From Ignavibacteria bacterium (GTDB lineage Bacteria > Bacteroidota > Ignavibacteria > Tepidaquicellales > Tepidaquicellaceae), in contig DATCHW010000016.1 of NCBI GenBank assembly GCA_036508135.1, positions 2,500 through 66,499 of the forward strand: a stretch of 64,000 bases of DNA, in the 5' to 3' direction. This document shows positions 12,701 through 52,072 of the stretch, one piece after another; positions within the stretch are counted from its first letter, which is position 1; every line of letters begins with the position of its first letter. The notes beneath the pieces were generated by a model, which was given only the letters and a program-made list of their open reading frames with translations, was not told where the DNA came from and did no database searches. The position numbers and the translations under genes were made by a program.

Positions 12701-13251
12701 TTGAGTCCCACAGACCCTATTGGTATTCTTTGAGTTTCGAAGTTGTTGATATATTATTTTTTAGGTTTTGGGATAAAAGATTCTGGTCACCAATAACAAA
12801 ATACAAAACAACTTGTTCTGATAATTTTTGTTATGGAAATTTCAAAACAAATGAATGGTCGGGTAAATTAATTGTAAACAGTACATTTTATTTTCTTCAA
12901 ATTGAATTATTCGGTAGAGATAATCAAGGACAAGGTGTTTTAACAACATATATGGAATTTGATTATCCCTTTATTAGAATGCCAATATTAAATAATGATG
13001 ATGAAAGATATAAAAGCATTTTATATAATTTAGATAAGAGAAAAATAAAAACGCTTTTTGAAGAATGCGGCATTAATCCCAAATCCGAAATTCCAATAGA
13101 AGAACAAGAGCCAAATCCATTACCTGATAGAGCAGAGCTTGATAAAATAGTATTCGATGCGTTAGAATTGACTGAAGAGGAGAGAAAAGAAGTCTATCGG
13201 GCAGTTTGCCGTCTTGTATGGAACAGAATCAGCAAAGCAAAAAGTGTATGA
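9748..13251 (+). CDS. Eco57I-type (gamma-class) N6-adenine DNA methyltransferase with a large specificity region
   Basis: 1167 aa. AVYTPRTEV, DPAVGSGAFLV (SAM motif I) and IIGNPPYVR (motif IV). The C-terminal ~480 aa contains YGLKTGKVKFFYI, which resembles TaqI-like target-recognition domains. Confidence 0.85.
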   Translation: MSSEKLDDIIKDFQIGKFTQLFREKNRDFKPREENLERYNDDLFKEGLKLGEIIFSDTNKLIVCGFKVKRELSERSCKKLQYDKSRKILKEERYDSGIFIFYDSDGNFRFSLVYAIYLGNRRDWNNFRRFTYYVNKKLTNKTFLKQIGSCDFSSNDKIKGSFSITAVTDLFYKEFFDEHFTKMVDSLIEKFDLEDEKARDFVLLFCIRIIFIGFIQKRKWIGKDELFILNFFKEYEIKFYSTDKFYEKWLTPLFFEALNNPPGRKVAYQNNEFSKETEESLQLAPYLNGGLFKKKTSFDDESYYLPDKDIKNFFEFLFSHSFTIEENSFEDEDLQLNPEFLGIIFERLVNKENGAVYTPRTEVDFMCRLSLVKWLEKNTSKSIQKNNLYELFFREIGDGKDTDDIQKEGSFSKKEIEEIISLLENISICDPAVGSGAFLVGMLLILDEIILNLKQRIGAKYDDSFERKKNIIANSLYGVEVQEWAVWICQLRLWISLFIDAPEDMKDSQTAILPSLDFKVRQGDSLVQRIGSKMFPVTGHAQLTKSIKDKVTKLKNIKVDYFLNKSDFGELIVKQNENKLFIEIINEEIYEIKDTLKKKKGKEKVEKINLFHSDISEQEVIEYNKEEISELENLLNELETQKSLITENKPLIWNIEFAEIFVEKNGFDLIIGNPPYVRHEDIEDPTGKIKDKKEYKSLLEEMVRIDYPDYFRPKIKINAKSDLYIYFYLRSLKLLNKNGYHCFICSNSWLDVGYGAWFQKFLLDKAPIDFIIDNHSKRSFESADINTIISFINAPQKQVTQNHYIKFVAFKKPFEETIFTEYLLDIDNTKSINNGENYRVYPITNNDLLSSGTEYDSDEQEKLNMGKFIGDKWGGKYLRAPFFMQKYFKSENLIKFNDLIDIKYGLKTGKVKFFYIKDEIIKEFNIEKEFYHPIITTSQDLDTLFVESNEFLFNSNLSKFKLKGTGALEYIKYGENNNMSIGSSVESHRPYWYSLSFEVVDILFFRFWDKRFWSPITKYKTTCSDNFCYGNFKTNEWSGKLIVNSTFYFLQIELFGRDNQGQGVLTTYMEFDYPFIRMPILNNDDERYKSILYNLDKRKIKTLFEECGINPKSEIPIEEQEPNPLPDRAELDKIVFDALELTEEERKEVYRAVCRLVWNRISKAKSV

Positions 13252-13962: not shown

Positions 13963-16602
13963 CTACCAGCTTTTTGAAAACGTTGCCCTGAATATTATAT
14001 CATTATTATCACCTTCTGCGAATACTTTTTCCCTGAAAAAATTCTTTATAACACTAACCGATAAGTTCCCGATATTGTAAACAGGAATGGTTGAATTGAA
14101 AGATAAAACCGTATTCGTATTTAATCCTGAAGTTCTTTGATAGCTGATCGATAATGTATTATTCCATTTATCGAACAATGTGAGGCTGCTGCTTAAATCA
14201 TAAGAATATATATTTGCCGGGGCAAGTGAATCCGTCAGAACTGAGTTGATAGAAGTAATATTAACTCCTGCCGAGATACTAAATGGTGATTCAAATGAAA
14301 CGGTTTCATTTAGAAGAAAATTATATATAGTATAATCGCCCAACCTCTTTTGTGATTGGTTAGTCTGTCTTGATAATGAAGCCATAGTACCAAGAGTATA
14401 TTTATTTACAGGAATATTGATACCTGTGGTTAAAGAAAACGCGGAAGCGAAGTTATCGATTTTTAATGAATCAATTACTGCGTCATTTTTTTCCGAGTAC
14501 GGTGTGTAATTTACTATCAGATAAGGCAGTTTATCAAGGAACATACTTAAAGCAAAATCATATCTGTTTTTATCCATTGAAGTTTTTTCACTTCTCAGTC
14601 TTTCGGTTGATAATTTCAGGTTAATCTTCTTATCGGCAAAATATTGCTCTATTCCGATAGTGAATCCTTTTACTCCATTAGTAAAAGACGGCGCTCCCAG
14701 AGAAGAATATCCAAGCCCGATATATTTATATCCGCCTTTAAGTTTTGTATTTGATTCGGGAATATTGACAACTGATTCAATATTATACATTAAATCAAAA
14801 TGCGTTCCCATTTTAACGCTTAACAGATTTTTGGCAAAACCGGGAATGTCATCGCTTACTAAATCCGGCGCTCTTAGGTCGTCAGTAATAACCGAGCCTG
14901 AAAACTCTCCTTTTACCACAACCCTGTCTTTAAATAATCTCAGCTTTCCATCTGTACCTAGTATCACATTTTCCATAGGCGACATACTTGAAGTTACTTT
15001 CAGTGTATCATTCAAATCCAGCGAATTAATATTATCTTTTGCCTTCATAAATGTAATATGAAAATGAGAATTATCTTTCCCGCCAATTCCAATTTTTCCT
15101 GCAAAAAGTTGTCGCGCAAAGTTTACGGAATCAATTGCATCAAGATTTTTTATTCCTGAAACGGCTAAATATAATAAACCGGTTGTATATTCAAGGTCGA
15201 GACCTGTTACTTTTGTTCCGTTCAATATATATTTTGAATAACTCGGATATGTTTCGCCGATACCAAGCGTATTAAAACTTGAAAAAAACTTTAATAATCC
15301 GCTTACGCTATTCCCTGCCTTATCTTTTGCGTTATTTATTTCTTCCTGAGTTTTATCTTTTAATTTTTGTTCTATTTCGGTTTTCTTTTCTTCAATTTTT
15401 TGTGTTACAATTTCCTTAAGTTTTGCCGGGTCAAACAGCAAAGCAAAACTGTTGATGTTTTGCTTGAATTCCTGCTGCTGCGTATCGTAATAAAAATTAA
15501 ACGTGAAAGGCAGATCGTATATGGAAACTGTCGGGTCAAACTGAACGCTTAATAAATTTCTCGGAATTTGCGAACCGGTTTTTTGTCTGTCCGTAAATTT
15601 ACCCGATACATTATAGCTTCCCGAGAATTTAAAAGGAGATTTTCCTTGAATTTCACTGAAATCAATTAACGGCGGTGAGATTAAATTCAAATTCTTGGTT
15701 TCACTCAATCCACTAAAACCGCCGATGCCCGATTTTTGTTTTATAAGGTCGGGTAAATTAATGAATGTTTTCTTGTCCTCTTGAAATGTTTTTATGTTTT
15801 TTTCATTAATATCTTTGGACGATAGTGTTCTTCCGTTATACGAGAACTCCCTCACTTCACTTTCTGATAGCAGGCTTCCGTTCAGATATGTTTTCACTCT
15901 CCATGCATATCTCCTTCCGTTTTCCAATGGTAAAGCCGCAATAGGATATTGAAAAAGTCCTGTCATTATATTTTTCTTGAAGTATATATATGGATTAGCC
16001 GTCATCGCATAGTAAGCAGTCTGCCTTTCAAGTATTTCGACAATATTGATTTCGTATGTAACATTATTTCCCGGAGTGATAGGTGATGGCGGCATCCAGT
16101 TAAAAATTGGGAGCATCGTTTTTATTTCGTCCTTATCCTGGGGCGAAATTAATTCACCTTTCACTGTCTGTAATACTTCGAAATCATTACAATACTCTGA
16201 AAGTAAAGTATTGGTTCCTTTGGAATAAACATATATGCAGATATTATATCTTCCTGACGGAAGCGAGCCGGTGGTTTTGAAATTATCATCTACTTCAGTT
16301 GAATATTTTTTCAAATCAATCGGGGAAATAGAAGCTGCGTTTATTAATTTCGGTACTAAAGTAGTCTGCAGTGTGAAACTCGAAGAGGTTGCCTCGACAA
16401 GCATTGTATTGTTTTTTTTGACAATCGCTTTAAGGTAGATATCAATAGCACTGCCTGAATTTGTCAAGCTCACTTTCCAGAGGTCTGAGGCGTTGAACCG
16501 GAACGGCGGCGGCGGATGTAATATAGCCGTAACTTGGGAGTACGATATATTTGAAAAGAACAATAATGCAAACAGAGTTAAAACTATTTTATAGGTTTTC
16601 AT
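13963..16602 (-). CDS. Secreted protein: shared N-terminal module plus putative outer-membrane beta-barrel
   Basis: The long ORF is 13963..16629; the likely start is MKTYKIV.. (signal peptide). The N-terminus is a diverged copy of the module found in the two upstream genes (..LISPQDKDEI...FNW...TYEINIVE...FQYP...GRRYAWRVK). The C-terminal ~600 aa is strand-rich and ends ..ATFSKSW. Confidence 0.75.
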   Translation of the reverse strand: MKTYKIVLTLFALLFFSNISYSQVTAILHPPPPFRFNASDLWKVSLTNSGSAIDIYLKAIVKKNNTMLVEATSSSFTLQTTLVPKLINAASISPIDLKKYSTEVDDNFKTTGSLPSGRYNICIYVYSKGTNTLLSEYCNDFEVLQTVKGELISPQDKDEIKTMLPIFNWMPPSPITPGNNVTYEINIVEILERQTAYYAMTANPYIYFKKNIMTGLFQYPIAALPLENGRRYAWRVKTYLNGSLLSESEVREFSYNGRTLSSKDINEKNIKTFQEDKKTFINLPDLIKQKSGIGGFSGLSETKNLNLISPPLIDFSEIQGKSPFKFSGSYNVSGKFTDRQKTGSQIPRNLLSVQFDPTVSIYDLPFTFNFYYDTQQQEFKQNINSFALLFDPAKLKEIVTQKIEEKKTEIEQKLKDKTQEEINNAKDKAGNSVSGLLKFFSSFNTLGIGETYPSYSKYILNGTKVTGLDLEYTTGLLYLAVSGIKNLDAIDSVNFARQLFAGKIGIGGKDNSHFHITFMKAKDNINSLDLNDTLKVTSSMSPMENVILGTDGKLRLFKDRVVVKGEFSGSVITDDLRAPDLVSDDIPGFAKNLLSVKMGTHFDLMYNIESVVNIPESNTKLKGGYKYIGLGYSSLGAPSFTNGVKGFTIGIEQYFADKKINLKLSTERLRSEKTSMDKNRYDFALSMFLDKLPYLIVNYTPYSEKNDAVIDSLKIDNFASAFSLTTGINIPVNKYTLGTMASLSRQTNQSQKRLGDYTIYNFLLNETVSFESPFSISAGVNITSINSVLTDSLAPANIYSYDLSSSLTLFDKWNNTLSISYQRTSGLNTNTVLSFNSTIPVYNIGNLSVSVIKNFFREKVFAEGDNNDIIFRATFSKSW

Positions 16603-16640
16603 TTTTAAAATTTTAATTATTAATATCATTTATATTGTTT

Positions 16641-18014
16641 CTATTTTACCAAAACAGGCCAAACTACTTGAACTGTGTCTTTACAGATTACTCTCCCATC
16701 CTTATTAAGCCATTCATAAATTACTACAATCGGTTCTGATGAGGAATTTTCAAAAGTAATACTTCCTAAATCGGTTAAGCCAATAGGAATATCGCCTGAA
16801 TTGTTTGTCCACTTTATTCCTGATGAACCCGGAGGGAATTTAGATGGTGTTCGTTTCCAGCCATCCGGTACATCGGAGGCTGATATGATTTTAGTATTTG
16901 CAGTAATTGTAAAACTTACAGGTCTATTTGCAGGTAAACCGCTATAATTATTGGTGATGCTAATGTCATAGTCTTTAATATCTATAGAGATTCTCATTTT
17001 CTCGTCGCCTTTGTTGAGGGCTGTATCTCCCTCTCTTGTGCCGGGTGAGATTTTCATTTTCTCGTTGCCTTTGTTGAGGGCTGTATCTCCCTCTCTTGTG
17101 CCGGGTGAGATTTTTCTTTTCTCGTCGCCTTTATTGAGAGCTGTATCTCCCTCTCTTGTTCCGGGGGAGATTTTCCTTTTCTCGTCTCCTTTATTATTTT
17201 GCACAATATTAAATTTGAAATCCTTACATGTAATTTCCTGCGCGATTAAAAAATTTCCCCATCTGTCAAATATACTCATCGTGCTCTGTAAATCTCCGAT
17301 TTTAACCAGCCATACATATTTCTTTCCGGTTTCAAATTTCGGAGCAGACGCGGGATACTGGAAAAGTGTCGGCGAAATTCCTTCCTTTTCGAAGAATGCT
17401 TTATTTCTTTTAATTGCTTCATCGGGAGATTGACTCTCTTTTAATTCCACGATTCTTAACGTATATGTCTGGTTTGAGCCCGGTGCTTTCGTATGCATCC
17501 ACGTAAATACGGGATTATCAATTCTCAATTCCTCTTCATCTCTCGGAGAAATAAGCTGAGGTGCATCTCCGCCTGTTATTTTCTGGTCGAAGCAGTCTTC
17601 TCCTGCAACTGAGTTATTTGTATATCTGAGTTCACAGCATATTTTATAATCTCCCGGAGGCGCCCCCCCTGTATTCATAAAAGATTGTTTATACTTAGGG
17701 TCTTTTGCCAGATAACTCACGTCGGGTATTTTCGGTAAATCGGATACCTTGAAATTAGTTGTGCCTTTTTTAACCACGAATGTCATCGTCTGACCTGTAG
17801 CTATCAGCTCGCTGTTTTCGTTGTTTGTCATTGAGCCGTAAAGGTAAGCTGTGAAAGTTTCACCGGTGTTTATAATTGTTGCGTTCCATAAATCAGCCGC
17901 TCTCAATTGATTTAACGGAGCACGTTTCATTCTGAATGTAACCTGAGCAAATAATGAACCCGAAGTTGATACGAGAATAATTACTGCGATAAATAATTTA
18001 ATATATTTTTTCAT
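16641..18014 (-). CDS. Secreted protein, paralogue of the N-terminus of the 1686-aa giant, with a 20-aa tandem-repeat linker
   Basis: 457 aa with a signal peptide. The first ~250 aa are nearly identical to 18061..23121. Then (GDEKRKISPGTREGDTALNK) x3.5. The C-terminal domain resembles one module of the giant protein. Confidence 0.85.
   Translation of the reverse strand: MKKYIKLFIAVIILVSTSGSLFAQVTFRMKRAPLNQLRAADLWNATIINTGETFTAYLYGSMTNNENSELIATGQTMTFVVKKGTTNFKVSDLPKIPDVSYLAKDPKYKQSFMNTGGAPPGDYKICCELRYTNNSVAGEDCFDQKITGGDAPQLISPRDEEELRIDNPVFTWMHTKAPGSNQTYTLRIVELKESQSPDEAIKRNKAFFEKEGISPTLFQYPASAPKFETGKKYVWLVKIGDLQSTMSIFDRWGNFLIAQEITCKDFKFNIVQNNKGDEKRKISPGTREGDTALNKGDEKRKISPGTREGDTALNKGNEKMKISPGTREGDTALNKGDEKMRISIDIKDYDISITNNYSGLPANRPVSFTITANTKIISASDVPDGWKRTPSKFPPGSSGIKWTNNSGDIPIGLTDLGSITFENSSSEPIVVIYEWLNKDGRVICKDTVQVVWPVLVK
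16986..17195. repeat. 60-bp tandem repeat, ~3.5 copies, in-frame inside 16641..18014
   Basis: Consecutive 60-nt sequence lines 16981-17200 are in perfect register (..ctcgtcgcctttgttgagggctgtatctccctctcttgtgccgggtgaga..). Confidence 0.95.
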
Positions 18015-18060
18015 AATCTTAATTTTGTTTTTCTCTGTTTAGACTCATAGTTTCAAATAT

Positions 18061-21000
18061 TTAATTCCCGAATCTGAAATTATCAACAATAAGGTTACCG
18101 GTATTATGCGTGACTTCAATCTTATCTATAGCAGTCGGTAAATTTATTCCGAAATAGGGATTAGCGTCTCCCGGTTGCACATAAGTATATATGCAATTAC
18201 CGGAAGTAACTTTAATTGTATAATTCCCAACCATCGGATAATACAGACCCATATCAAATCCCGCTTTTTTATACATTCCGGAGGGGAATACAATTGTAAT
18301 GTATTGACCTGCAGAACTAACAATATATTGATTCCAATAAGACGTGCAATTGGAGAAAGTTAATCCGTTCCTTGTCCAACCTGAAAGAGGAACAGGACTA
18401 CCGGAACTTGAAATTGGACTGCCGTCATCATTAGTGGAAAAATCAATCAGTTGTGATGAAGTTAATGTATTCATGAACGATATCGCGTCATACAGACGGT
18501 GATTTGAAGACGAATCACATCCTGTAGGATTCGGCGGTTTAATTACATCGATGTATGATGTACAACTATCACAAACTTTTCCGTTACATGAAACTTTCAG
18601 ATTAATTGAATATGTCCCTAATTCATTTAATTGAAAATTGTTAATTACTTGTGTATTAAATGATGTTTGTGTGCCTGTTATTGGTGATGTAATTTTCCAA
18701 TCGTAAGAAGCTTTGCAATTCTCTTTACCAATACAATTGTATGTTTGACTGACAAAATCCAAAGATACTCCTTCGATAATACCGGGGTGTTTATTCCCGC
18801 AAGGCAGGAAGGTTTCAATCTCTTCAATTATATTTCCATTAAATCCGTGAATTGTAAATCCTTTTTTATCTTCACTCCATCCACCGCAATCGCAGTCAGG
18901 CTTTCCGACTGTACGGAAATTGAAACCGCATGAATCACAAATTCTATCGCCGCAGTAAGCATAAATTGTAAATCTGTATTTACTTTCCGGTGGTGCCGTA
19001 AATGTAACAGGCAATGTTGTGGTTGTACCGGAATTGATAATACTGCCTGAACCTAAATCAATTATATTCCACTTGTAATTAGTTATACATCCGGGTTTGC
19101 TGCAAAGATAAGAAGATGCATTATATGTAATGTTTGAACCAGCAGCCATCGGACCATAAATCATTTTTTCAAAACAACCTATCTTCATTTTATTTTCGAT
19201 TCCGGTCGGATCTTTATAACCTATATTACTGTGTGGACTCCATCTATCACCGCAACCGCAATCATTTTGGATAACATTAATTCTAACCCAACATGAATCA
19301 CATACTCTTCCGCCGCAATATGCTTTAAATGATAAAATATAAGAGCCGGGTGTATTAAACATATAATTAAATGGATTACCGGTTCCTGTAACATGAATCG
19401 GGATTACTCCTGAACCACCTGTTAAATCCCATGAATATTCAGCGATACAGTTTTCAGTATTACATATATATGCAGGGAAAGTTAAAGTTAATTGAGAGTT
19501 TAAATCAACCGGAAACTTTGCGTCGCATAATACTGGATGCTGTAATCTATCGTTAACCGATACTTGTATTTCATTGCTTTCCCATTTACCGCAATCGCAG
19601 TCCGGCTTTCCGATTGTACTGAAATTAAAACCGCATGAATCGCATACTTTATCGCCGCAGTAAGCATAAATTGTAAATCTATATTTACTTTCCGGCGGTG
19701 CAGTAAATGTAACAGGTAATGTTGTTGTCGTACCTGAGTTAACAATACTGCCTGAACCCAAATCAATTATATTCCACTTGTAATTAGCTATACAATCGGG
19801 TTTGTTGCAAACATAAGAATTTGCATTATAATTAATAACTGAACCAACAGCCATCGGACCATAAATCATTTTTTCAAAACATCCTATCTTTAATTGATTT
19901 TCTTTTCCGTCAGGATTTATGTATCCAATATTGCTGTGTGGACTCCATTTATCACCGCAATCACATGTATCATGGTATATTATTATAGAATCGCAATTCG
20001 GCAGTCTAAAGCATAACGTGTCATAGCATGTATCTGTTTTTACAGGAGTGTATAGGAACATTTCTGTGTATATGCAACAGGACCCGGTCTGACTGGTTGA
20101 GAACTGACCGCTAACCGATATTGTACTGTTTGCAGAAATACTTCCGGAGTTATTACCAAGGAATGTACCGCAGGAGTTTGACAAAACGTAATTACCGATT
20201 GTCGAAGTAAGATTGGTTAAACTAATTATATAACCGTATTTTTTAACACCCGTTGGATCCTTTATGCACCAGAGTGAATCGAGTTTAGTCTCCAAACAGC
20301 CTTGTCCGATGTTGCAATTCGGCATAGTTTTACAAATTTCAGTGCTATAGCAGCACCAGTCATAATATTGCTGACCGTCTATTAATCTGTGTTCATATAA
20401 TGAAATATTAAAACAGAATTGAGAACCGGGATTTACTCCGCTGATTATCAACGTCTGTTGAGGCGAAATCATATTCGGAGCAATTGTAACATTACTGAAA
20501 TTGGCAGGAGAAAATATTAACGATGAAGGCGATAAAGGATTAAACTGGAAGCCTGTAGTTGTATGGGAAGAATTATTTTTTATATGAAACGTATATTGAA
20601 ATGTTCCATTTGGAAGACATATCAAAGAATCATTTATTAATTGCACACAGAGTGTTGGCGGAGGCGGTGGGATACACCGGGTTATCAGAGTATCTACGCA
20701 TTTTACGGAATCTTTCCCCACCCATTCTACAAGAATATGTTGAGTTGTAGATGTATAATTTGTTAAACAGAAATTAGCAATGTTTGATAAATTTCCTGTT
20801 GGGATAAAATTATTCGGATAATTTGCCGGATTATTTATAAGATTAATTTTATTATCCGGATTAGTGTTTGTCGAATACCAATTGTCTGATATATTTGTGT
20901 TCCAGGTACTAAAAGCTACACCTGTTTCAAGTGTTGTTAAATTTATTTGTGTGAAATAATTTCCCGAATAATTATTATGTAAATTCAAACTGTAGCAACA

Positions 21001-23121
21001 GTTCAACGGATCTCCAGTAATATCTGCACTGACCTCATTACATACACAAGATGGAATTTTTACACAAAGAGTATCATAGCACCAGCAGCAGCCATCGGGA
21101 CTTGTGAATTTGAAAATAATGCAGACTGATGAGTCAGGCGTAGCTCCGCTTATTGTAAACGCAGGCTGATTCGTTGTTTGCCCGGGAGTTACAGACGTAG
21201 ATAATGTCAAAGGTGACGGAGAAACACTTATACCTGATGGTACAGTATTAACTACTTCTATTTTATTTATTGGGAAAGAAGAGTTATTAGTGAACGAATA
21301 ATGTAAATTATAATTATTACCGTTGCAAAGTAAAGTATCTTTACTAAATGTAACACAAGGTATATCGCAATTTAAAGTTATTGTATCAGAACAAACTATA
21401 CTATTATCATTTTTTATCCAGTTAACCACAACATGCTGCGGACTTGATAGTTTATTCATGCAAAAATTAAAGAATCCATTTTGCTGACCCGTAGGAATAC
21501 TGCCTGCCAATTTTTGTATCGTAAATTCCTGCGGAGTATTAACAGGGAAAAACCAGCCCGATGGACTTCCTAATTGGCAGCTGCCTGTAACAAATGTATT
21601 CGGTGATTGAGCTAAGAATTGTATTTTTGTAATATTTGCAGTATTAGATGGATGTGTAAGATTTAAACTCCAGCAGCAGTCTCCAATTGCACTGCGTACA
21701 GGGACAACTTTAAATGAGTCACAGATACTGCCGTGATCAGGCGGCGGTACGCAGTCTCCTGTATTCTTTATACATATATTATCATACCCGATTCTTTCAT
21801 TCTGATAGTTTTGTACATCAACCCTTAATCTCACTTTTGTAACATTGCTTAGGAGCGAATTCCAGTTAACCTCAGAACCCGGTGTCATTACCCAATGTCC
21901 ATCTGAATTGGAAGGCAAAGTGCCGTCTGAATTAAGATACTTGAGTGGAGCACAATAAGTATGCCAGCCATCACCAACTGAAATTATATTCCAGGTAACG
22001 AAAGTAGCAGCAAAACCACTTCCTTCAATTGCTATGTAGGGCTGCATAGTAAGCGGAGGACTTGAAAAAGAATCTGTCGTATAGTAATAATCATCTCCAT
22101 TATATATGTAATTAACATCAAAACATAATGAACCACAGCTATCAGTCATCAGATCTCCCCAGTTTCCGGTATAAGTACTATCAACATTGAAAAAATATGA
22201 TGAACCTGATTGATCTGTTGTTTCTATATATTGTCCGGGATGACCGCCCGTCGGTTTAATTGTCTTTAGCGCATTGTTCACTTGCCAGCCCCCGGGTGTT
22301 CCATCTTCAAAATCAGTGCAAAAAGGTGCCAGGGGAGACTTTTTAACAGGAAGTGTCTTTATACCCCACCTGTCAAATATACTTATATTGCTTTGCAAGT
22401 CACCGACCTTAACCATCCATGCATATTTCTTTCCTGCTTCAAATTTCGGAGCGGACGCAGGATATTGAAAAAGTGTCTGCGAAATTCCTTCCTTTTCAAA
22501 GAATACTGTATTTCTTTTCATTGCTTCATCGGGAGATTGATCTCCTCTTATTTCTACAATTTTTATAGTATATGTTTGATTTGAACCGGGAGCTTTTATA
22601 TGCATCCACGTAAATACAGGATTATCAATTCTTATTTCCTCTTCATCTCTCGGAGAAATTAGTTGAGGTGCATCTCCGCCTATAATTTTCTGGTCAAAGC
22701 AGTCTTCTCCTGCAACTGTATTATCCGTCCGGCGTAATTCGCAGCATATTTTATAATCTCCCGGAGGAGCTCCGCCCGTATTCATAAAAGATTGCTTATA
22801 CTTCGGGTCTTTCGCCAGATAACTCACATCGGGAATTTTCGGTAAATCTGATACTTTGAAATTAGTCGTGCCTTTTTTTACTTCGAAAGTCATTGTCTGA
22901 CCTGTAGCTATCAGCTCGCTGTTTTCGTTGTTTGTCAATGAACCGTAAAGGTAAGCCGTGAAAGTTTCTCCGGTATTTATAATAGTTGCGTTCCATAAAT
23001 CCGCTGATCTAAGCTGATTTAACGGAGCACGCTTCATTCTGAATGTAACCTGAGCAAATAATGAACCCGAAGTTGATACGAGAATTATTACTGCGATAAG
23101 ATATATAATAACTTTTTTCAT
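18061..23121 (-). CDS. Giant (1686 aa) secreted Cys-rich multidomain surface protein, unassigned family
   Basis: Signal peptide, then the shared ~250-aa N-module, then many ~110-130-aa Cys-framed modules (e.g. ..CCWSLNL.., ..CCYSLNL.., CDCG.KW..). No T9SS C-terminal domain. Confidence 0.9.
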   Translation of the reverse strand: MKKVIIYLIAVIILVSTSGSLFAQVTFRMKRAPLNQLRSADLWNATIINTGETFTAYLYGSLTNNENSELIATGQTMTFEVKKGTTNFKVSDLPKIPDVSYLAKDPKYKQSFMNTGGAPPGDYKICCELRRTDNTVAGEDCFDQKIIGGDAPQLISPRDEEEIRIDNPVFTWMHIKAPGSNQTYTIKIVEIRGDQSPDEAMKRNTVFFEKEGISQTLFQYPASAPKFEAGKKYAWMVKVGDLQSNISIFDRWGIKTLPVKKSPLAPFCTDFEDGTPGGWQVNNALKTIKPTGGHPGQYIETTDQSGSSYFFNVDSTYTGNWGDLMTDSCGSLCFDVNYIYNGDDYYYTTDSFSSPPLTMQPYIAIEGSGFAATFVTWNIISVGDGWHTYCAPLKYLNSDGTLPSNSDGHWVMTPGSEVNWNSLLSNVTKVRLRVDVQNYQNERIGYDNICIKNTGDCVPPPDHGSICDSFKVVPVRSAIGDCCWSLNLTHPSNTANITKIQFLAQSPNTFVTGSCQLGSPSGWFFPVNTPQEFTIQKLAGSIPTGQQNGFFNFCMNKLSSPQHVVVNWIKNDNSIVCSDTITLNCDIPCVTFSKDTLLCNGNNYNLHYSFTNNSSFPINKIEVVNTVPSGISVSPSPLTLSTSVTPGQTTNQPAFTISGATPDSSVCIIFKFTSPDGCCWCYDTLCVKIPSCVCNEVSADITGDPLNCCYSLNLHNNYSGNYFTQINLTTLETGVAFSTWNTNISDNWYSTNTNPDNKINLINNPANYPNNFIPTGNLSNIANFCLTNYTSTTQHILVEWVGKDSVKCVDTLITRCIPPPPPTLCVQLINDSLICLPNGTFQYTFHIKNNSSHTTTGFQFNPLSPSSLIFSPANFSNVTIAPNMISPQQTLIISGVNPGSQFCFNISLYEHRLIDGQQYYDWCCYSTEICKTMPNCNIGQGCLETKLDSLWCIKDPTGVKKYGYIISLTNLTSTIGNYVLSNSCGTFLGNNSGSISANSTISVSGQFSTSQTGSCCIYTEMFLYTPVKTDTCYDTLCFRLPNCDSIIIYHDTCDCGDKWSPHSNIGYINPDGKENQLKIGCFEKMIYGPMAVGSVINYNANSYVCNKPDCIANYKWNIIDLGSGSIVNSGTTTTLPVTFTAPPESKYRFTIYAYCGDKVCDSCGFNFSTIGKPDCDCGKWESNEIQVSVNDRLQHPVLCDAKFPVDLNSQLTLTFPAYICNTENCIAEYSWDLTGGSGVIPIHVTGTGNPFNYMFNTPGSYILSFKAYCGGRVCDSCWVRINVIQNDCGCGDRWSPHSNIGYKDPTGIENKMKIGCFEKMIYGPMAAGSNITYNASSYLCSKPGCITNYKWNIIDLGSGSIINSGTTTTLPVTFTAPPESKYRFTIYAYCGDRICDSCGFNFRTVGKPDCDCGGWSEDKKGFTIHGFNGNIIEEIETFLPCGNKHPGIIEGVSLDFVSQTYNCIGKENCKASYDWKITSPITGTQTSFNTQVINNFQLNELGTYSINLKVSCNGKVCDSCTSYIDVIKPPNPTGCDSSSNHRLYDAISFMNTLTSSQLIDFSTNDDGSPISSSGSPVPLSGWTRNGLTFSNCTSYWNQYIVSSAGQYITIVFPSGMYKKAGFDMGLYYPMVGNYTIKVTSGNCIYTYVQPGDANPYFGINLPTAIDKIEVTHNTGNLIVDNFRFGN
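18870..19968. repeat. Intragenic duplication: two ~390-bp copies 705 bp apart inside the giant gene
   Basis: 18870-19262 and 19578-19968 align base for base with few changes. They encode CGCGDRWSPHSNIGYKDP.. and CDCGDKWSPHSNIGYINP.. through ..YRFTIYAYCGD(R/K)(I/V)CDSCGFNF. Confidence 0.9.
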
Positions 23122-23136
23122 GTAAGTATTTTTTTA

Positions 23137-23544
23137 TTATTTTAATATTTCACAAACGAACGATAGTGTTTTAACCGGTTCTTTTTCATCATTTGATGTT
23201 ACCGTTATTGTTTTACTGTTTATGCCTTCCCGTCCTTGTGTATTAAAAGTAACTTTTATTTCACCAGATTCACCGGGTGCAAATTCTTTTTTATCTCTCA
23301 GGGTTGCTCCCGTGCATCCGCAAGACGGGTGAACGGATTCTATAATTAAGTTAGCTGTTCCTGTATTTTTGAATTGAAAAAGATGCTCAAGCGTTTCTCC
23401 CTGCTGTACTTTTCCGAAATCAAATTGCATTTCATTAAATGTTAAAATCGCTTCCTTTTCAGTAGGTGTCACTTTTGCGCTGATTTTTATTGCTGCAAAA
23501 CAGATAAAAGTAAGCAGCAGCATACTATAAATAATTTTTTTCAT
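23137..23544 (-). CDS. DUF1573 domain-containing secreted protein
   Basis: 135 aa with a signal peptide. The HPSCGCTGA motif and surrounding Ig-like pattern are typical of DUF1573. Confidence 0.8.
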   Translation of the reverse strand: MKKIIYSMLLLTFICFAAIKISAKVTPTEKEAILTFNEMQFDFGKVQQGETLEHLFQFKNTGTANLIIESVHPSCGCTGATLRDKKEFAPGESGEIKVTFNTQGREGINSKTITVTSNDEKEPVKTLSFVCEILK

Positions 23545-23596
23545 TTTAATTTTTTATTTTTATTTTGTAAAGTATATTTTTATTAGAATTGGATTT

Positions 23597-23842
23597 ACTC
23601 AACTATCTTCCCGTTTTTTATCCGAATTGAACTTTTATTTTTCAGATTTTCCAGAGACTTTCTTAACACTTCAAGTTTTTCCTTCGGAATATTAAGGTCG
23701 TTTTCAAGGTCGGCGATTGCTTTTCGACTGTATCGTATTCTTTTGTTTCTGAGCTGTCAGAATCTTTTTGTATTATTATTAGCGGAGCTGAATTATGGTT
23801 TTGTTTTTTTATAATTCCCTTTAATCTATTCCAAATATTCAT
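23597..23842 (-). pseudogene. Frameshifted copy of the 82-aa gene 27037..27285
   Basis: The N-terminus MNIWNRLKGIIKKQNHNSAPLIIIQKDS is identical. The C-terminal half (..AIADLENDLNIPKEKLEVLRKSLENLKNKSSIRIKNGKIVE*) is readable only in another frame after small indels. Confidence 0.7.
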
Positions 23843-23906
23843 TGTGTGCAAATTTATTTAACACAAATTAGGACAATATAAACGTCACGGCAAGTATGAA
23901 TCAATA

Positions 23907-23955
23907 AACGGTATGAATTATTAAGTTAACGGTAGTGATTTCTAAACTAACGGTA
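23907..23955 (-). promoter_or_regulatory. Three direct ACCGTT repeats with 21-bp phasing (candidate LytTR operator), copy B
   Basis: AACGGTA on the plus strand starts at 23907, 23928 and 23949. On the coding strand it reads TACCGTT(A/T)A. It lies upstream of the pseudogene/DUF1573 operon. Confidence 0.55.
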
Positions 23956-24035
23956 AAGGAGAATATGAAAATAATGATGATTATAGTATTATTTCTTTGG
24001 ATAGAGTGCTGGCTGACACCGGTCAAAGACGCAAT

Positions 24036-24074
24036 TCAATAAAATAAACCCCTTGTGATATTCTTCAAGGGGTT
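24036..24074 (-). terminator. Rho-independent terminator of the 27285-24107 operon
   Basis: On the minus strand: AACCCCTTG-N10-CAAGGGGTT followed by TATTTTATT. Confidence 0.7.
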
Positions 24075-24106
24075 TTCAAAGTTAAGATTATGAATAATAA
24101 TAATTT

Positions 24107-24799
24107 TTATTTCACCAACACAAGTTTTTTAGTTATTACAGATTTAATATCACCGTCGGTCATAAGTCTATAGAAATACGCGCCGCTTGAAATTCCCGAA
24201 GCATCAAATTGCACGGTATAATATCCTGCTGTTTTGAATTCTTTCACGAGAGTCCTGATTTCACGTCCGGACATATCAAAGATGGTTATTTTCACATTAG
24301 CATCTTTTGGTATATCAAAATCAATCTTTGTGACAGGATTAAACGGATTCGGATAATTCTGGCTCAAATTAAATTTAGCAGGAATTCCGATTTCTACGGT
24401 TCCGCTCAGATTATGAAATTCAAAGTTCCCGTTATTATCTATTTGTTTGAGTCTGTAAGAATACTTTCCTGTTTGAAGGTTTCTATCTTCAAACGAATAG
24501 ATTGACGGAGTATTGACCGTTCCTCTTCCCGGCAGAAAACCAACTTTCGCAAAATTACCCGTAAGAGTTTTTCTTTCGATATCAAAGCCGGAGTTATTTT
24601 GTTCCGATGCAGTCACCCAATTTAGTTTGATATTTTGACCGCTTACAATTGATGTAAAAGAAGCAAGTTCAACGGGAAGCGGCGAATCAATTATTTCCAC
24701 GGAGAAAGCACCTCCGCCATTACCGCCTGTATATTGGGCTGTTAGCACTACCGGCAATGCCAGCATTAGCAGCGCTAAGTATATTGTTATCTTTTTCAT
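24107..24799 (-). CDS. T9SS C-terminal-sorting-domain secreted protein
   Basis: Likely start MKKITIYLALL.. (signal peptide); the long ORF extends to 24883. C-terminus ..LSQNYPNPFNPVTKIDFDIP...YFYRL...LVLVK. Confidence 0.8.
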   Translation of the reverse strand: MKKITIYLALLMLALPVVLTAQYTGGNGGGAFSVEIIDSPLPVELASFTSIVSGQNIKLNWVTASEQNNSGFDIERKTLTGNFAKVGFLPGRGTVNTPSIYSFEDRNLQTGKYSYRLKQIDNNGNFEFHNLSGTVEIGIPAKFNLSQNYPNPFNPVTKIDFDIPKDANVKITIFDMSGREIRTLVKEFKTAGYYTVQFDASGISSGAYFYRLMTDGDIKSVITKKLVLVK

Positions 24800-24849
24800 A
24801 TTTTTATTTTGATTTTTAATTTTAAAATTGTTTTCATTGATAACCCCGG

Positions 24850-26868
24850 CTAAGGTGCTAAACGAACTCCACGACCGCCACAATTACTGCTGTTACTATT
24901 GTCGGCGTTTTCCGCAATGGTGCGGTCGGAAACCTGCAAGAGCGTAGTATTACTTTGGTTCCAAGCGCCGCCACGCCAACCTGTGCCTGCTGCTTGCGTA
25001 ACACCGGTTATTCCCAAATAAATCGTATTTGCCGTTGTGGTTGTGCCATTTCCATTTATCCCCGGCCAGTAATTTACGTTTGCATCACCATTCTTATTCA
25101 ATGTGCCATCTCCGTTTAATCCGGTAAAACTACGTCCCGCAACATCACCTACAGTTACAGAACGATCCCATAGATTGCCGGTCATCTCCATTATACCATA
25201 ATACGTGGCGCCTGATGTTACGCGGGTAGATGTACCTGTTGCAAATACCCCAACCCGCACAGGTCCATTAATACTACCGGCGGAAGGAATAGTTGCAACA
25301 TATGCAGCATTGCCACAGATTGCTATGCCGTTAACAACATTTGCTTGATCAGAATATAAGCGGTGTGTAGGCATAACAGACACCGTAAAATGTGTTGCAT
25401 CTGTAATTCCTGTAACAACTGTACCCAGAGCAAAGGCGGCAGCGGTTTCGGCGCCGGCAATACCAGTGACGCTTACGGGCATTCCGATTCCGAGCCCCGT
25501 TGTGCTGATAACTGTAATTATGTTTCCTCCGGTAGAAGTAGCACCCGCATCAGAAATATAATTCGAACTATTAAGGTAATTAGTAGCTATAACTTCGTTG
25601 AATGCGCCGCTGTTGCTTAATGTATATGGGCTGCCAGCAATACCAGTTGTGCCCCAGGCATATTCGTTGGCTACTGCTGATACAGGTCCCCGGCAGGATT
25701 TTTCAAATTCCAGCTCAGTCATCGGGCGCAAGCCGCTCCAATCGAAATACGCCGCCATATCTGACCAGCTTATATCGTTACATGCTACAGACGAGTCGGC
25801 GGTAACATAACTACCTACCGCGCTGCCTGAAATACCATACCGAAAGCCACTGCTGGTGAATTTCCGTAACGTCGCCTGAGTTTGTGTCAGACTATTCAAA
25901 AAATCCACATACTCTTGTTGGCTTATTTCGTATTTCATGCAATAAAATGCAGAGTAACCGGTGGGGAATCCCGCTGAGAGAGTAGCGGTCGTTGTTCCTG
26001 TTAAATCCAAGCTGCCTCTGGCGGATAAATTAGATGCACTCGAACTTGAACTATTACCCTGAATTGTTGGTGCCGTAGATGTGATTTGAAACGGTATAGT
26101 AACCCCTGATATGCTATTAGCTGCTGTAAAGCTGAAATTTTCTGTTCCTCCGCTACCCACATAAAAATTCCCTTGCGGAACATACACCATCTCAACTGCA
26201 TAAACCCGTATATCCAAAGAAGCACCGTCGGCTACTCCGTTTACTCCATATTCCCAGCGGAGTTGTGTGTTAGTAAATGTGTTTGTGCCGGTACCATCGG
26301 CATCCCTATAAATAAATGCACCGGTTCCATCGGTTGCCGGAGTTATGGTTCTGCCTGAGATTGGGGAAAGCCCAGTTGTGTTAATCTTAGCGTGTTCCCA
26401 GATTGCAGAGCCGGTAATAACATTCGCTGCACCGGATAAAGGAGTAGTTGGAGTTGCAGACACTGTAAAAGTTGTTGTATTTATAATTGCTGTAACAACT
26501 GTACCCGCAGCAAATGTACCTGTACCTCCCGATTTGCTTACTGGCATTCCAACTCTAAGCCCCGAAGTACTAGTAACAGTAATTGTAGTACCTGAAGAAG
26601 TAGCGCCCGCAGCTGAAGTATAATTTCCTCTAACCTTGTACTTCACAAACACCCATGCGGCATCATAGTTATTGGGAGCAGAAGAGGTACGCCAGGAGTT
26701 TTCCCAGGTGAGGTCGAACTGAACTAGCGTGAAATGACTGCCAGTGTTTTCACCTGTTAAACTAACACTTCCAGGAGTGACACTAATGTTATTTGAAAAA
26801 GCACTGTATGTCAACAGCATAAACATAAAGACAAATAAGATTTGCCTTTGCAGAGATTTAAAAGACAT
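24850..26868 (-). CDS. FGE-sulfatase/SUMF1 (GldJ/GldK-like) domain protein with two inserted Thr/Gly/Ala-rich repeats
   Basis: Likely start MSFKSLQRQILFVF.. (signal peptide); the long ORF extends to 26991. SUMF1-type motifs YCMKYEISQQEY, RPMTELEFEKSCRG, YYGIMEMTGNLWD, RGGAW. Visibly higher G+C than its neighbours. Confidence 0.75.
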   Translation of the reverse strand: MSFKSLQRQILFVFMFMLLTYSAFSNNISVTPGSVSLTGENTGSHFTLVQFDLTWENSWRTSSAPNNYDAAWVFVKYKVRGNYTSAAGATSSGTTITVTSTSGLRVGMPVSKSGGTGTFAAGTVVTAIINTTTFTVSATPTTPLSGAANVITGSAIWEHAKINTTGLSPISGRTITPATDGTGAFIYRDADGTGTNTFTNTQLRWEYGVNGVADGASLDIRVYAVEMVYVPQGNFYVGSGGTENFSFTAANSISGVTIPFQITSTAPTIQGNSSSSSASNLSARGSLDLTGTTTATLSAGFPTGYSAFYCMKYEISQQEYVDFLNSLTQTQATLRKFTSSGFRYGISGSAVGSYVTADSSVACNDISWSDMAAYFDWSGLRPMTELEFEKSCRGPVSAVANEYAWGTTGIAGSPYTLSNSGAFNEVIATNYLNSSNYISDAGATSTGGNIITVISTTGLGIGMPVSVTGIAGAETAAAFALGTVVTGITDATHFTVSVMPTHRLYSDQANVVNGIAICGNAAYVATIPSAGSINGPVRVGVFATGTSTRVTSGATYYGIMEMTGNLWDRSVTVGDVAGRSFTGLNGDGTLNKNGDANVNYWPGINGNGTTTTANTIYLGITGVTQAAGTGWRGGAWNQSNTTLLQVSDRTIAENADNSNSSNCGGRGVRLAP

Positions 26869-27036
26869 TACAAAGTCCCGTTGAAAAGAACAGGGATTTT
26901 GGGCTGAGTGCTCCGTAAAGGGTAAGAAGAAAGAAAGAACATTTAATAAGCTCTTCCGAATCTTTAACAGAACATTTTTGAAATTTTTCATTTGATTTAT
27001 TTTTATTTGACGAAATATATTTTATTAGAATTTGAT

Positions 27037-27285
27037 TTAATCAACTATCTCCCCATTCTTTATCCGTATTGAACTTTTATTCTTAAGACTGTTCAGAGAC
27101 TTTCTTAACTGTTCAAGTTTATCCTTAGGAATGTTAAGGTCGCCCTCAAGGTCTGCGATTGCTATTTCGATTGAGCTGTATTCTTTATTCTCAATGCTGT
27201 TAGAATCTTTTTGTATTATTATTAGCGGAGCTGAATTATGGTTTTGTTTTTTTATAATTCCCTTTAATCTATTCCAAATATTCAT
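27037..27285 (-). CDS. Small (82 aa) hypothetical protein, first gene downstream of the candidate LytTR operator
   Basis: Intact ORF with no signal peptide and a predicted helical, charged C-terminus. A frameshifted second copy lies at 23597..23842. Confidence 0.55.
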   Translation of the reverse strand: MNIWNRLKGIIKKQNHNSAPLIIIQKDSNSIENKEYSSIEIAIADLEGDLNIPKDKLEQLRKSLNSLKNKSSIRIKNGEIVD

Positions 27286-27347
27286 TGTGTAAATTTATTT
27301 GACACAAATTAGGACAATATAAACGCCGCGGCAAGTATGAATCAGTA

Positions 27348-27396
27348 AACGGTATGAATTATTAAGTTAACGGTAGTGATTTCCAAATTAACGGTA
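27348..27396 (-). promoter_or_regulatory. Three direct ACCGTT repeats with 21-bp phasing (candidate LytTR operator), copy A
   Basis: AACGGTA starts at 27348, 27369 and 27390. On the coding strand they are followed by TTG-N20-TAATTTG and then the ATG at 27285. Confidence 0.55.
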
Positions 27397-27696
27397 CCGG
27401 AACAAATGAAGATATTGGTAAGTAATGAACAATGAAGAGAAAAAACAAGCTATATTTAGATAATCAGTTCTCAAATTGATTGCAAACCGGCAAGAAAACT
27501 TTTAGAATATGAACTTTTAAAAGAAATAACACCGAGGGCATGAAGGAGAAATATTTTCAATATTCATCCGATGACAAAGAGCAGTCAGCGGATGATAAAA
27601 TTATTCTTTTCTTCTCTTTTTCTTCGGGAGCTTCGTGAAATTGTTTTTAATAATTATTTTTAGTTCTGGCTTTATCCGTTTAGATATTATAAAATA

Positions 27697-31398: not shown

Positions 31399-31768
31399 GT
31401 GCTATATTATTATTAAAATACACTCTAAAATTTTTACAAAAGAATGAAAGAACTAACTCTACATCTGCTATGCAATTGAAATTATTAATTTGTTGTAGAA
31501 TTTAATATGTTCTTAAGAGTTTCCGAAATAAGCAATTTGTTTTGGGGGAAACGTAGTTCTCTCCGTATATTTTAATTTAATTGAAAAATGGCGTAAATGC
31601 AAATGTATTGCTTCAAGGTAAAAAATCTAAATAATCTATAGAAAGAAAACACCTCAATATCATAAGAAACATCCGGAATGAACCCGGAAACATCAGCACG
31701 GATAAAGAAAGACATGAATGAGTTCTTCTTTATTTAACAGAATAAAAAAGTGGCTGTTAGATGAAGTA

Positions 31769-32395
31769 TTATATTTTCTTCAAAAGCAGTGTTAATATTC
31801 TCGGTAAACTTGTTCTGTTGTTGTCGTCAAAAAATTCGTTGATATCCATAATTTCAAGACCATGCATTTTTGCAGACTGTATGAAGTCCGAAATATTATG
31901 ATTGAAACAGGTTAAAATTTGTTCTCCTGCTTCGGTCTCAAACCGGGCTTTACTGCCTGAATATTGTTTAAAAGGATGCAGTTCGCCAATATAAACATGT
32001 CCGCCTGAAACCATTACCTTTGAAACTTCACTGAATATATTCTCAAGGTTCTCAATATGTTCAAGTACAAGACTGAAACTTACAAGTTCATACTTCCCAT
32101 TAATGAAAGTCCAATTTTTAGTAATATCGGCTTGTTGGAACCGAACTTTTTCAGAAGTTACTCTTTCTTTTGCTTTTGCAAGCATATCGGAAGAAAGGTC
32201 AACCGCAGTAATTTGTTTCGCTTTTGTTATAAACCACTCAGTGTTTTTTCCTGTACCGCAACCAATCTCCAGACAAGTGTCAAAACGAATGTCTGCTAAA
32301 GTTGTCTTCAAAGCCTGAGCCTCAAGGTCTCGTGTTTTGTTATTATCAGTATCGTACTGTTTCGACCAAATGTCGTAAGCTTGTCTTATATCCAT
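31769..32395 (-). CDS. Class I SAM-dependent methyltransferase
   Basis: 208 aa; motif I CLEIGCGTGKNT. Confidence 0.8.
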   Translation of the reverse strand: MDIRQAYDIWSKQYDTDNNKTRDLEAQALKTTLADIRFDTCLEIGCGTGKNTEWFITKAKQITAVDLSSDMLAKAKERVTSEKVRFQQADITKNWTFINGKYELVSFSLVLEHIENLENIFSEVSKVMVSGGHVYIGELHPFKQYSGSKARFETEAGEQILTCFNHNISDFIQSAKMHGLEIMDINEFFDDNNRTSLPRILTLLLKKI

Positions 32396-51590: not shown

Positions 51591-51653
51591 ATATAATAAT
51601 TCATTTCCACTTAATTAACACATTTTTCGAAACATTATTTTACGCCGCCCCTT

Positions 51654-52072
51654 CTCAATTTTATACTTCCAAACTCAATTAAAATCCTTTTCCTCTCAAT
51701 TCAAACACTTATCGTGTCAATTTATACTCTTGCCAGGTCGATTTCCACCCTTGGACACTCAATTTATATGTCTAACTACTCAATTGATATGCATTGCCAC
51801 TCAATTAATATGCATTGCCACTTAATAAATATGTATAAACACTCTATTAATATGCATACCTACCCAATTGATATGCATAGACACTTAGTTTGTATGTCTA
51901 AACACTTAATAAATATGCATAAACACTCTATTAATATGCATACCTACTCAATTGATATGTATAGACACTTAATTTGTATGCTTAACCACTCAATTTGTAT
52001 TACCGGTGATTAGATTTCTTCATCTTCCAATCCAATTTCCACCCCCGCCAATTCAATTTCCACCCCCGCCTT
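51654..52072. repeat. Array of 20 contiguous 21-bp direct repeats (iteron/centromere-like)
   Basis: The CTCAATT-type core recurs at 51654, 51674, 51695, 51716 ... 52052, spaced exactly 21 bp after the first unit. The best units read CACTCAATTRATATGCATNNN. An 84-bp higher-order repeat spans 51819-51986. Confidence 0.95.

Follow-up and report, generated by a model that had tools for sequence, protein, structure and literature searches.

We analyzed a 64-kb stretch of DNA (64,000 nucleotides, hereafter the window, to which all coordinates refer) from contig DATCHW010000016.1 of an Ignavibacteria bacterium, and studied two arrays of phased TACCGTT repeats that lie beside a two-component system with a LytTR-type response regulator. 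The genes of this locus are on the minus strand and are arranged in the order of response regulator, sensor histidine kinase, array A, a small gene (copy A), a gene for a 713-aa protein, a gene for a protein with a type IX secretion tail, a hairpin, array B, a second small gene (copy B), a DUF1573 gene, and genes for proteins of 1686, 457 and 888 aa (Table 1). A preliminary description of the window had proposed that the repeats are binding sites of the LytTR regulator, and that this one regulator drives both downstream gene clusters, operon 1 (27285 to 24107) and operon 2 (23842 to 13963). Its assignment of a LytTR regulator and its kinase, directly upstream of array A and co-directional with it, was confirmed by Pfam; that is, as is expected of a LytTR operator, a cognate regulator gene adjoins the sites. 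No second LytTR regulator was found in the 64-kb window.

The repeats are phased exactly as described at all six positions. On the plus strand, the heptamer AACGGTA starts at 27348, 27369 and 27390 and again at 23907, 23928 and 23949, with a period of exactly 21 bp in both sets, and the corresponding TACCGTT triples on the minus strand span 27396-27348 and 23955-23907. The minus-strand units read TACCGTTAA / TACCGTTAA / TACCGTTTA in copy A and TACCGTTAG / TACCGTTAA / TACCGTTTA in copy B. The sites of AgrA are imperfect direct repeats of the form [TA][AC][CA]GTTN[AG][TG] with 12-13 bp spacers upstream of the -35 element (PMC5600425), and LytTR sites generally consist of repeats of 9-11 nucleotides (nt) with spacers of 11-13 nt (PMC4847170). 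Both arrays show this spacing, with a period in the range of about 20-22 bp. In the register ACCGTTNNN, the three units of either copy fit the AgrA-type consensus at 9, 8 and 8 of the 9 positions, in agreement with the fit of 8-9 positions given in the preliminary description. The heptamer occurs 16 times in the window, compared with 5.8 +/- 2.3 expected, and 6 of the 16 occurrences make up the two arrays. When the full triple pattern was searched with up to three mismatches, it matched at the two arrays only, with an expected number of 0.00 in 100 dinucleotide-preserving shuffles. The spacers of the two arrays are not repeated; repetition is limited to the core and to positions 9-13 of the unit. 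A search against Rfam at gathering thresholds gave no known RNA family anywhere in the window.

Predicted promoter elements follow each array. A scan for the sigma-70 consensus was uninformative for this lineage; the sigma-A promoter of the Bacteroidota/Chlorobi type is TTG-N17-23-TAnnTTTG (bioRxiv 10.1101/172254; PMC9723704), and a TAnnTTGY variant of the -7 box has also been described (PMC9723704). The window sequence TAATTTGT fits the TAnnTTTG type as well as the TAnnTTGY variant. In copy A, the TTG (27334-27332) is separated by 20 nt from TAATTTG (27311-27305), and it lies 20 nt past the start of unit 3 and 11 nt past the unit-3 9-mer, close to the distance of about 10 nt reported earlier. 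The repeats of both copies therefore stand directly upstream of the predicted equivalent of the -35 element and of the predicted transcription start, and the -7 box is followed by the ATG of the small gene after 18-20 nt, with 18 nt in copy A. In addition, a degenerate fourth unit continues the phase, reading TGCCGCG (27333-27327) in copy A and TGCCGTG in copy B, and it overlaps the -33 TTG in both copies. The array, the promoter-like elements and the small gene are together contained in a segment of ~405 bp that is duplicated in the window (23578-23983 and 27020-27424, 86-90% identity). A terminator-like hairpin stands between the two operons; therefore, the second operon needs its own promoter.

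We then compared the arrangement across related loci. A scan of one genome per species yielded 80 loci with kinase homologues of 32-58% identity from Ignavibacteria, Melioribacteraceae, Prolixibacteraceae, Lutibacter and other Bacteroidia. Stygiobacter electus (L027) appears to be the sole isolate, as opposed to a metagenome-assembled genome, among their sources. In most of these loci, ACCGTT occurs within 330 bp past the kinase stop codon, always in the forward and never in the reverse orientation, and two or three copies typically follow one another at a distance of exactly 21 bp. In the window (27397-27696) and in the close relative L082, 300 bp separate the kinase stop from the first box; this distance is 15-100 bp in most related loci. 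Arrays were scored as three heptamers at 21-bp phase, with a maximum of 21. The best triple score in the 400 bp after the kinase gene was at least 15/21 in 49 of 62 usable loci and at least 17/21 in 39 of 62; random 400-bp segments of the same loci reached these scores in 2 and 1 of 116 cases, respectively. Across 1.43 Mb of sequence, comprising the related loci and the window, 32 sites carry an array scoring at least 19/21, of which 29 belong to related loci and 3 to the window; every one lies at a promoter position of this kind, and shuffled sequence contained none. The repeats are thus kept in related loci and are not scattered through other DNA, two points on which the preliminary description had staked its interpretation.

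The cross-locus architecture can be written as ctTACCG(T/A)TtAaTTa - TACCGTTnRnTTA - tACCGnnnnCTTgTTnGCTAT-TG - ~20 nt - TAGnTT(T/C)G. The sequence GCTATTG is kept across loci at the position of the degenerate unit and the -33 element, and TAGnTT(T/C)G is kept at the equivalent of the -7 box; the layout of array, TTG and TAGnTT(T/C)G in this order is kept in 42 loci. The start codon of the conserved small gene lies ~113-116 bp from unit 1 in most loci.

To delimit the unit, we pooled three units from each of 42 independent promoters outside the window (126 units). C3, C4 and G5 were present in 125, 126 and 111 of the 126 units, respectively, and T1, A2, T6 and T7 were also strong. Past the heptamer, position 9 is a purine (A in 81 and G in 40 units), positions 11-12 are TT (121 and 108 units) and position 13 is again a purine. 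The cores had an information content of 1.1-1.7 bits per position and positions 8-13 one of ~1.1; the distal spacers of units 1 and 2 had 0.55-0.7, and the 30 nt preceding unit 1 had 0.33. Because the information content extends through positions 8-13, we take the recognized unit to be ~13 nt long (TACCGTTnRnTTA). The preliminary description had given a 9-bp repeat with a 12-bp spacer; the phasing holds, and the unit is longer than was described. In a set of ten distinct close copies, variation affects every one of the 20 positions preceding unit 1, compared with 15 of 63 array positions, indicating that the copied and conserved module starts at the first base of unit 1.

These observations support the overall interpretation of the preliminary description. 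To that interpretation, the comparison adds the duplicated module, the ~13-nt unit, the degenerate fourth unit and the conserved 82-aa first gene. We consider it highly probable that the arrays are LytTR operator sites of the adjacent regulator in an unusual three-box form; from the sequence comparison, we infer binding by this regulator, its oligomeric state, activation as opposed to repression, and the transcription start. The phosphorylated regulator would bind as an oligomer, with one LytTR domain per ~13-nt unit, and would occupy three, possibly four, sites. Since the units are two helical turns apart, the protomers would all be on the same side of the helix. The one nearest the promoter would be placed 21 bp upstream of the weak -33 TTG, which falls on the fourth position of the phase, and would recruit or stabilize sigma-A RNA polymerase at the -33/-7 promoter. 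If the start is assumed to be a few nt past the -7 box, the units would be centered near -51, -72 and -93; the proximal repeat of AgrA, at about -60 (PMC4227749), is at a comparable position. The adjacent propeller/Y_Y_Y kinase would supply a signal from outside the cytoplasm, and the output would be transcription of the 82-aa gene together with operons for secreted, type-IX-secretion and cell-surface proteins. The duplicated module of promoter and small gene would put operon 2 under the same control.

Several points weigh against this interpretation or limit the evidence for it. First, the two arrays of the window result from one duplication event and do not corroborate each other. The statement of the preliminary description that the triple is present twice is right as a count of arrays; it is not independent support, because both arrays lie inside the ~405-bp duplication. 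Second, among close relatives, 3 of 21 core positions and 12 of 42 spacer positions vary, a difference that is not significant (p = 0.35); the footprint is therefore resolved by the distant comparison only. Third, when metagenomes were scanned for the exact triple pattern, 108 of 118 matches were ordinary 21-bp or 7-bp tandem repeats in which the spacers are repeated as well, and the 10 array-like matches were on contigs mostly too short to interpret. The exact triple pattern alone is not specific. Fourth, loci L075 and L076 come from the same metagenome-assembled genome; that is, paralogous LytTR systems with the TACCGTT core coexist in one genome, and another regulator could therefore also use the sites. 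Finally, an activator (PlnC) and a repressor (PlnD) are known to bind the same repeats (PMC2714321).

The last point bears on the main alternative, in which the arrays are genuine LytTR sites and the regulator acts, like PlnD, as a repressor or a dual regulator. In many loci the array starts only 15-60 bp past the kinase stop with no obvious terminator, and expression by read-through from the regulator/kinase operon could be blocked there by a bound protein. However, the array is located wholly upstream of the -33 element and overlaps neither the -7 box nor the predicted start, and the weak -33 region (CTTG) is typical of activator-dependent promoters. In addition, copy B is downstream of the terminator-like hairpin; hence, read-through cannot be the main source of transcription there. 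We therefore regard repression or dual control as unlikely, and activation by the adjacent regulator as the better account of the arrays.

We also asked whether the sites could be bound by another protein, either the 82-aa protein in an autoregulatory role or the product of a paralogous LytTR gene at another place in the genome. In the main clade, no neighbor of the array is as constant as the small gene, and the paralogous systems of L075 and L076 share the TACCGTT core. Nevertheless, arrays are kept beside regulator/kinase pairs that have no small gene. In the five loci L069, L070, L072, L075 and L076, whose kinases are 32-35% identical to that of the window, the regulator and kinase genes are directly followed by a triple array and then by other genes, and no small-gene homologue was found in any of the five. 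In L023, two back-to-back arrays at 19386-19434 (minus strand) and 19590-19638 (plus strand), 155 bp apart, precede divergent genes; one side directly targets the gene for a 2039-aa protein without a small gene, and the other side targets the gene for a 304-aa membrane protein. The array thus accompanies the regulator, and its presence does not depend on that of the small gene. Covariation with the regulator/kinase clade is also seen in the 3' half of the unit: TT is found at positions 11-12 in two or three units of nearly every main-clade locus, whereas L069, L070, L072 and L075 (the clade with 34-35% kinase identity) have CTCA at positions 10-13, that is, TC instead of TT at positions 11-12 and TT in none of their units, with the same TACCGTT core. 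The difference between CTCA and nTTA in the 3' half may be a specificity determinant, and we treat this covariation as supportive, not decisive, because the contrast rests on two clades. Furthermore, the motif and its spacing agree with the LytTR consensus, the window encodes no LytTR regulator besides the adjacent one, and the modeled 82-aa protein appears to have no recognizable DNA-binding fold. Taken from sequence comparison, this evidence favors the LytTR regulator over the small protein as the binder, and a different binder seems very improbable. The CTCA clade also differs in the genes downstream of its arrays; L069 has a small membrane protein and a 313-aa protein, and L072 has a related small membrane protein.

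The last alternative, that the repeats are a non-functional by-product of tandem duplication or slippage recopied by the 405-bp duplication, could draw on the many plain metagenomic tandem repeats and on a second 21-bp tandem array in the window (51650-52070), but it is effectively refuted by the cross-locus conservation, since the spacers are unrepeated and since loci with kinase identities of no more than 32-58% have kept the arrangement, with only the unit positions conserved. Because of this level of protein identity, it is also unlikely that the related loci are recent horizontal copies of one element.

The LytTR direct-repeat operator is already well known as a kind. At the agr P2 and P3 promoters of Staphylococcus aureus, AgrA likewise uses imperfect direct repeats that fit the consensus and are ~21 bp apart from start to start (PMC5600425), upstream of the -35 element of promoters with weak or suboptimal core elements (PMC5600425; PMC4227749). 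These repeats are bound by a LytTR response regulator, as we propose on sequence grounds for the present arrays, which stand upstream of a -33 element in the same way. In contrast to the two repeats per AgrA promoter, each array here has three full units of ~13 nt and a degenerate fourth unit over the -33 element, the promoter is of the Bacteroidota -33/-7 type, and the sensor is a large propeller/Y_Y_Y kinase instead of a peptide-sensing membrane domain. The agr system also differs in its feedback. No repeats were found upstream of the regulator gene in the window (31399-31770), and in 69 loci the sequence preceding this gene gave top triple scores indistinguishable from those of random segments. 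Since the regulator/kinase operon lacks an array of its own, the system has, at this level, no auto-induction loop of the kind that is typical in Agr, Com and Pln. Likewise, pheromone precursor and processing genes are absent among the genes scanned: Pfam and NCBIfam searches of nine genes of the locus revealed no C39/ATP-binding cassette (ABC) exporter, no AgrB-like gene and no pheromone precursor or leader peptide.

The promoters of the PlnC/PlnD and ComE type in lactic acid bacteria and streptococci resemble the present ones in a further respect. PlnC and PlnD bind as dimers to 9-bp repeats, 12 bp apart, that immediately precede the -35 element, and one regulator serves several operons of the locus through a copied promoter arrangement (PMC2714321). 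The same layout is predicted here from the duplicated module. However, those systems perform peptide quorum sensing with double-glycine-leader peptides and ABC exporters, none of which was found among the nine genes scanned here. In addition, the present arrays have three units instead of two, and the first gene encodes a cytoplasmic-looking 82-aa protein of an unnamed family. The pairing of a LytS-type kinase with a LytTR regulator is shared with BtsS/BtsR (YehU/YehT) and YpdA/YpdB of Escherichia coli, whose regulators bind direct repeats upstream of a single target gene (PMC4847170). Unlike BtsS/BtsR, the present system has a Reg_prop/Y_Y_Y sensor in place of the LytS membrane sensor, and its predicted targets are secreted and surface proteins instead of a transporter. 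The best NCBIfam match of the regulator was BtsR, at 128 bits against a cutoff of 246; therefore, the regulator is not a BtsR orthologue. A phmmer search with its LytTR domain against PDB sequences gave a sole, marginal match (3d6w, E=0.03).

In its sensor, the system resembles the hybrid two-component systems of Bacteroides, which share the extracytoplasmic Reg_prop and Y_Y_Y regions and belong to the same phylogenetic neighborhood. Such Reg_prop/Y_Y_Y hybrid sensors belong to the polysaccharide utilization loci of Bacteroides. In the hybrids, however, HisKA, receiver and AraC-type domains are joined in one protein, whereas the present system has a PF06580 kinase without receiver or AraC domains and a separate LytTR regulator. 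LytTR regulators are common in genomes of the Bacteroidota lineage, and the literature searched describes no LytTR operator or regulon for that lineage. New here are the phased arrangement of three units plus one, which is built from a 13-nt unit and widely conserved in Ignavibacteria and Bacteroidia, its association with propeller-type kinases, the unnamed small-protein family and the tandem copying of cassettes. The locus and its relatives thus offer a first predicted operator model, with a 13-nt unit in three phased copies at a fixed distance from a -33/-7 promoter, together with a recognizable target set of secreted, type-IX-secretion and cell-surface proteins and a new small-protein family tied to the system. 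A position-weight matrix built from these units could predict regulons across Ignavibacteria and Bacteroidia genomes, and the clade-specific 3' half of the unit (TTA versus TCA) offers a way to study how paralogous LytTR regulators keep to separate targets.

Table 1. Features of the LytTR locus in the window; promoter elements are predictions.
Feature	Position	Strand	Details
Response regulator, 244 aa	30664..31398	-	Pfam Response_reg (E=4e-20) and LytTR (E=2e-19); proposed binder of the arrays
Sensor histidine kinase, 988 aa	27697..30663	-	Pfam: extracytoplasmic Reg_prop beta-propeller repeats, Y_Y_Y, LytS-type His_kinase PF06580, HATPase
Array A	27342..27396	-	TACCGTTAATTTG (27396-27384), N8, TACCGTTAACTTA (27375-27363), N8, TACCGTTTACTGA (27354-27342)
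-33-like TTG within the degenerate fourth unit, copy A	27327..27334	-	TTG at 27334-27332
-7 box TAATTTGT, copy A	27304..27311	-	Predicted; Bacteroidota sigma-A type (TAnnTTTG / TAnnTTGY)
Small gene copy A, 82 aa	27037..27285	-	First gene after array A; conserved unnamed family
FGE-sulfatase-like secreted protein, 713 aa	24850..26991	-	Cargo of operon 1; same gene type after the first cassette in L081 and L082
Protein with type IX secretion C-terminal sorting domain	24107..24883	-	Pfam Por_Secre_tail; last gene of operon 1
Terminator-like hairpin	24035..24075	-	10-bp stem and U-rich tail; fold -14.1 kcal/mol, z = -3.06; between operon 1 and promoter copy B
Array B	23901..23955	-	TACCGTTAGTTTA (23955-23943), N8, TACCGTTAACTTA (23934-23922), N8, TACCGTTTATTGA (23913-23901)
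Promoter copy B	23863..23893	-	TTG 23893-23891 inside TGCCGTG; -7 box TAATTTGT 23870-23863
Small gene copy B, frameshifted	23598..23842	-	By tblastn and translation, residues 1-40 in one frame and 31-82 in another
Operon 2 cargo	13963..23544	-	DUF1573 (23137-23544), 1686-aa PKD giant protein (18061-23121), 457-aa (16641-18014), 888-aa (13963-16629)

The small gene, the first gene after each array of the window, encodes a protein of a strongly conserved family, whose consensus is M..KKLM.LFTKK.S.SAPLLIIKKD.DD.NVKEY.SIEEAIADLENDPNVP.DKIEKLKSSLK.LKNKTSIKIRNGEIIK. A profile search recovered at least 800 metagenomic relatives, all of which are unnamed or carry evidently spurious automatic names, and profile searches of Pfam, NCBIfam and PDB gave no match to the 82-aa protein. 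AlphaFold models of the protein reached a predicted local distance difference test (pLDDT) score of 58 from the single sequence, which is poor, and a moderate 73 from an alignment, the latter with a predicted alpha/beta fold. A Foldseek search of the model against PDB gave nothing significant; because the best E-value was 0.5, to de novo designed proteins, we make no structural assignment. The frameshift of copy B is also present on the metagenome contig L116, whose flanking genes are identical to those of the window, and the gene is intact in the close relative L140. Either copy B has recently become a pseudogene, or the assemblies have an error in common.

In close relatives, the small gene is found three times per locus, at 1692, 6430 and 10001 in L081 and at 519, 6774 and 10001 in L082, and every copy is preceded by a triple array at the same distance. 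The cassettes headed by these copies carry an FGE-sulfatase-like protein with a type IX tail protein, a Fib_succ_major protein, and DUF1573 with a giant protein. A single-cassette form is present in L085 and L001, in which the small gene is directly followed by the genes for DUF1573 and the giant protein. In several loci, among them L001, L085 and L060, the small gene is followed by homologues of the operon 2 cargo. In the window, the FGE-sulfatase/type IX secretion cassette sits between the kinase gene and the older operon of DUF1573 and giant-protein genes. It is conceivable, although we hold this view only tentatively, that the lineage of Ignavibacteria and Bacteroidia has a conserved module of three components, made up of the regulator, the kinase and the 82-aa protein, with the small protein as a functional partner and the array plus small gene as a portable cassette. 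If so, the small gene would always be the first one induced, and its product could, for instance, exert feedback on the regulator or kinase or be required for every secreted-protein operon. Tandem copying of the cassette, which is present three times in L081 and L082 and twice in the window, would then enroll new operons.

Some further observations concern the cargo genes and the rest of the window. The 1686-aa, 457-aa and 888-aa proteins (13963-23121) have in common an N-terminal domain of ~250 aa that has no Pfam or NCBIfam match; in many related loci, homologues of it are encoded after the small gene. Between the 1686-aa and 457-aa proteins, the domain is 88% identical, which corresponds to a DNA repeat (17257-17556 and 22364-22663). 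The 457-aa gene also contains a 60-bp repeat of 3.4 copies (16987-17192, minus strand) that encodes GDEKRKISPGTREGDTALNK three times. Convergent with operon 2, an open reading frame of 1167 aa (9748-13251, plus strand) has an NPPY motif (GNPPYVRHE), read from the translation; this motif is typical of N6-adenine DNA methyltransferases and of fused restriction-modification enzymes.

Two other sets of phased repeats were noted. The intergenic array at 51650-52070 (plus strand) consists of ~14 head-to-tail 21-bp units with the consensus CACTCAATTAATATGCATAAC and has an iteron-like look; Tandem Repeats Finder (TRF) reported 11.4 copies at 51756-51995 and shorter arrays at 51674-51722 and 52027-52070, and the units are unrelated in sequence to the TACCGTT boxes. 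The unrelated metagenome contigs L117, L149 and L192, which are too short to show neighboring genes, carry phased TACCGTTCGTCGG units, the core of which resembles the AlgR binding sequence CCGTTCGTC.

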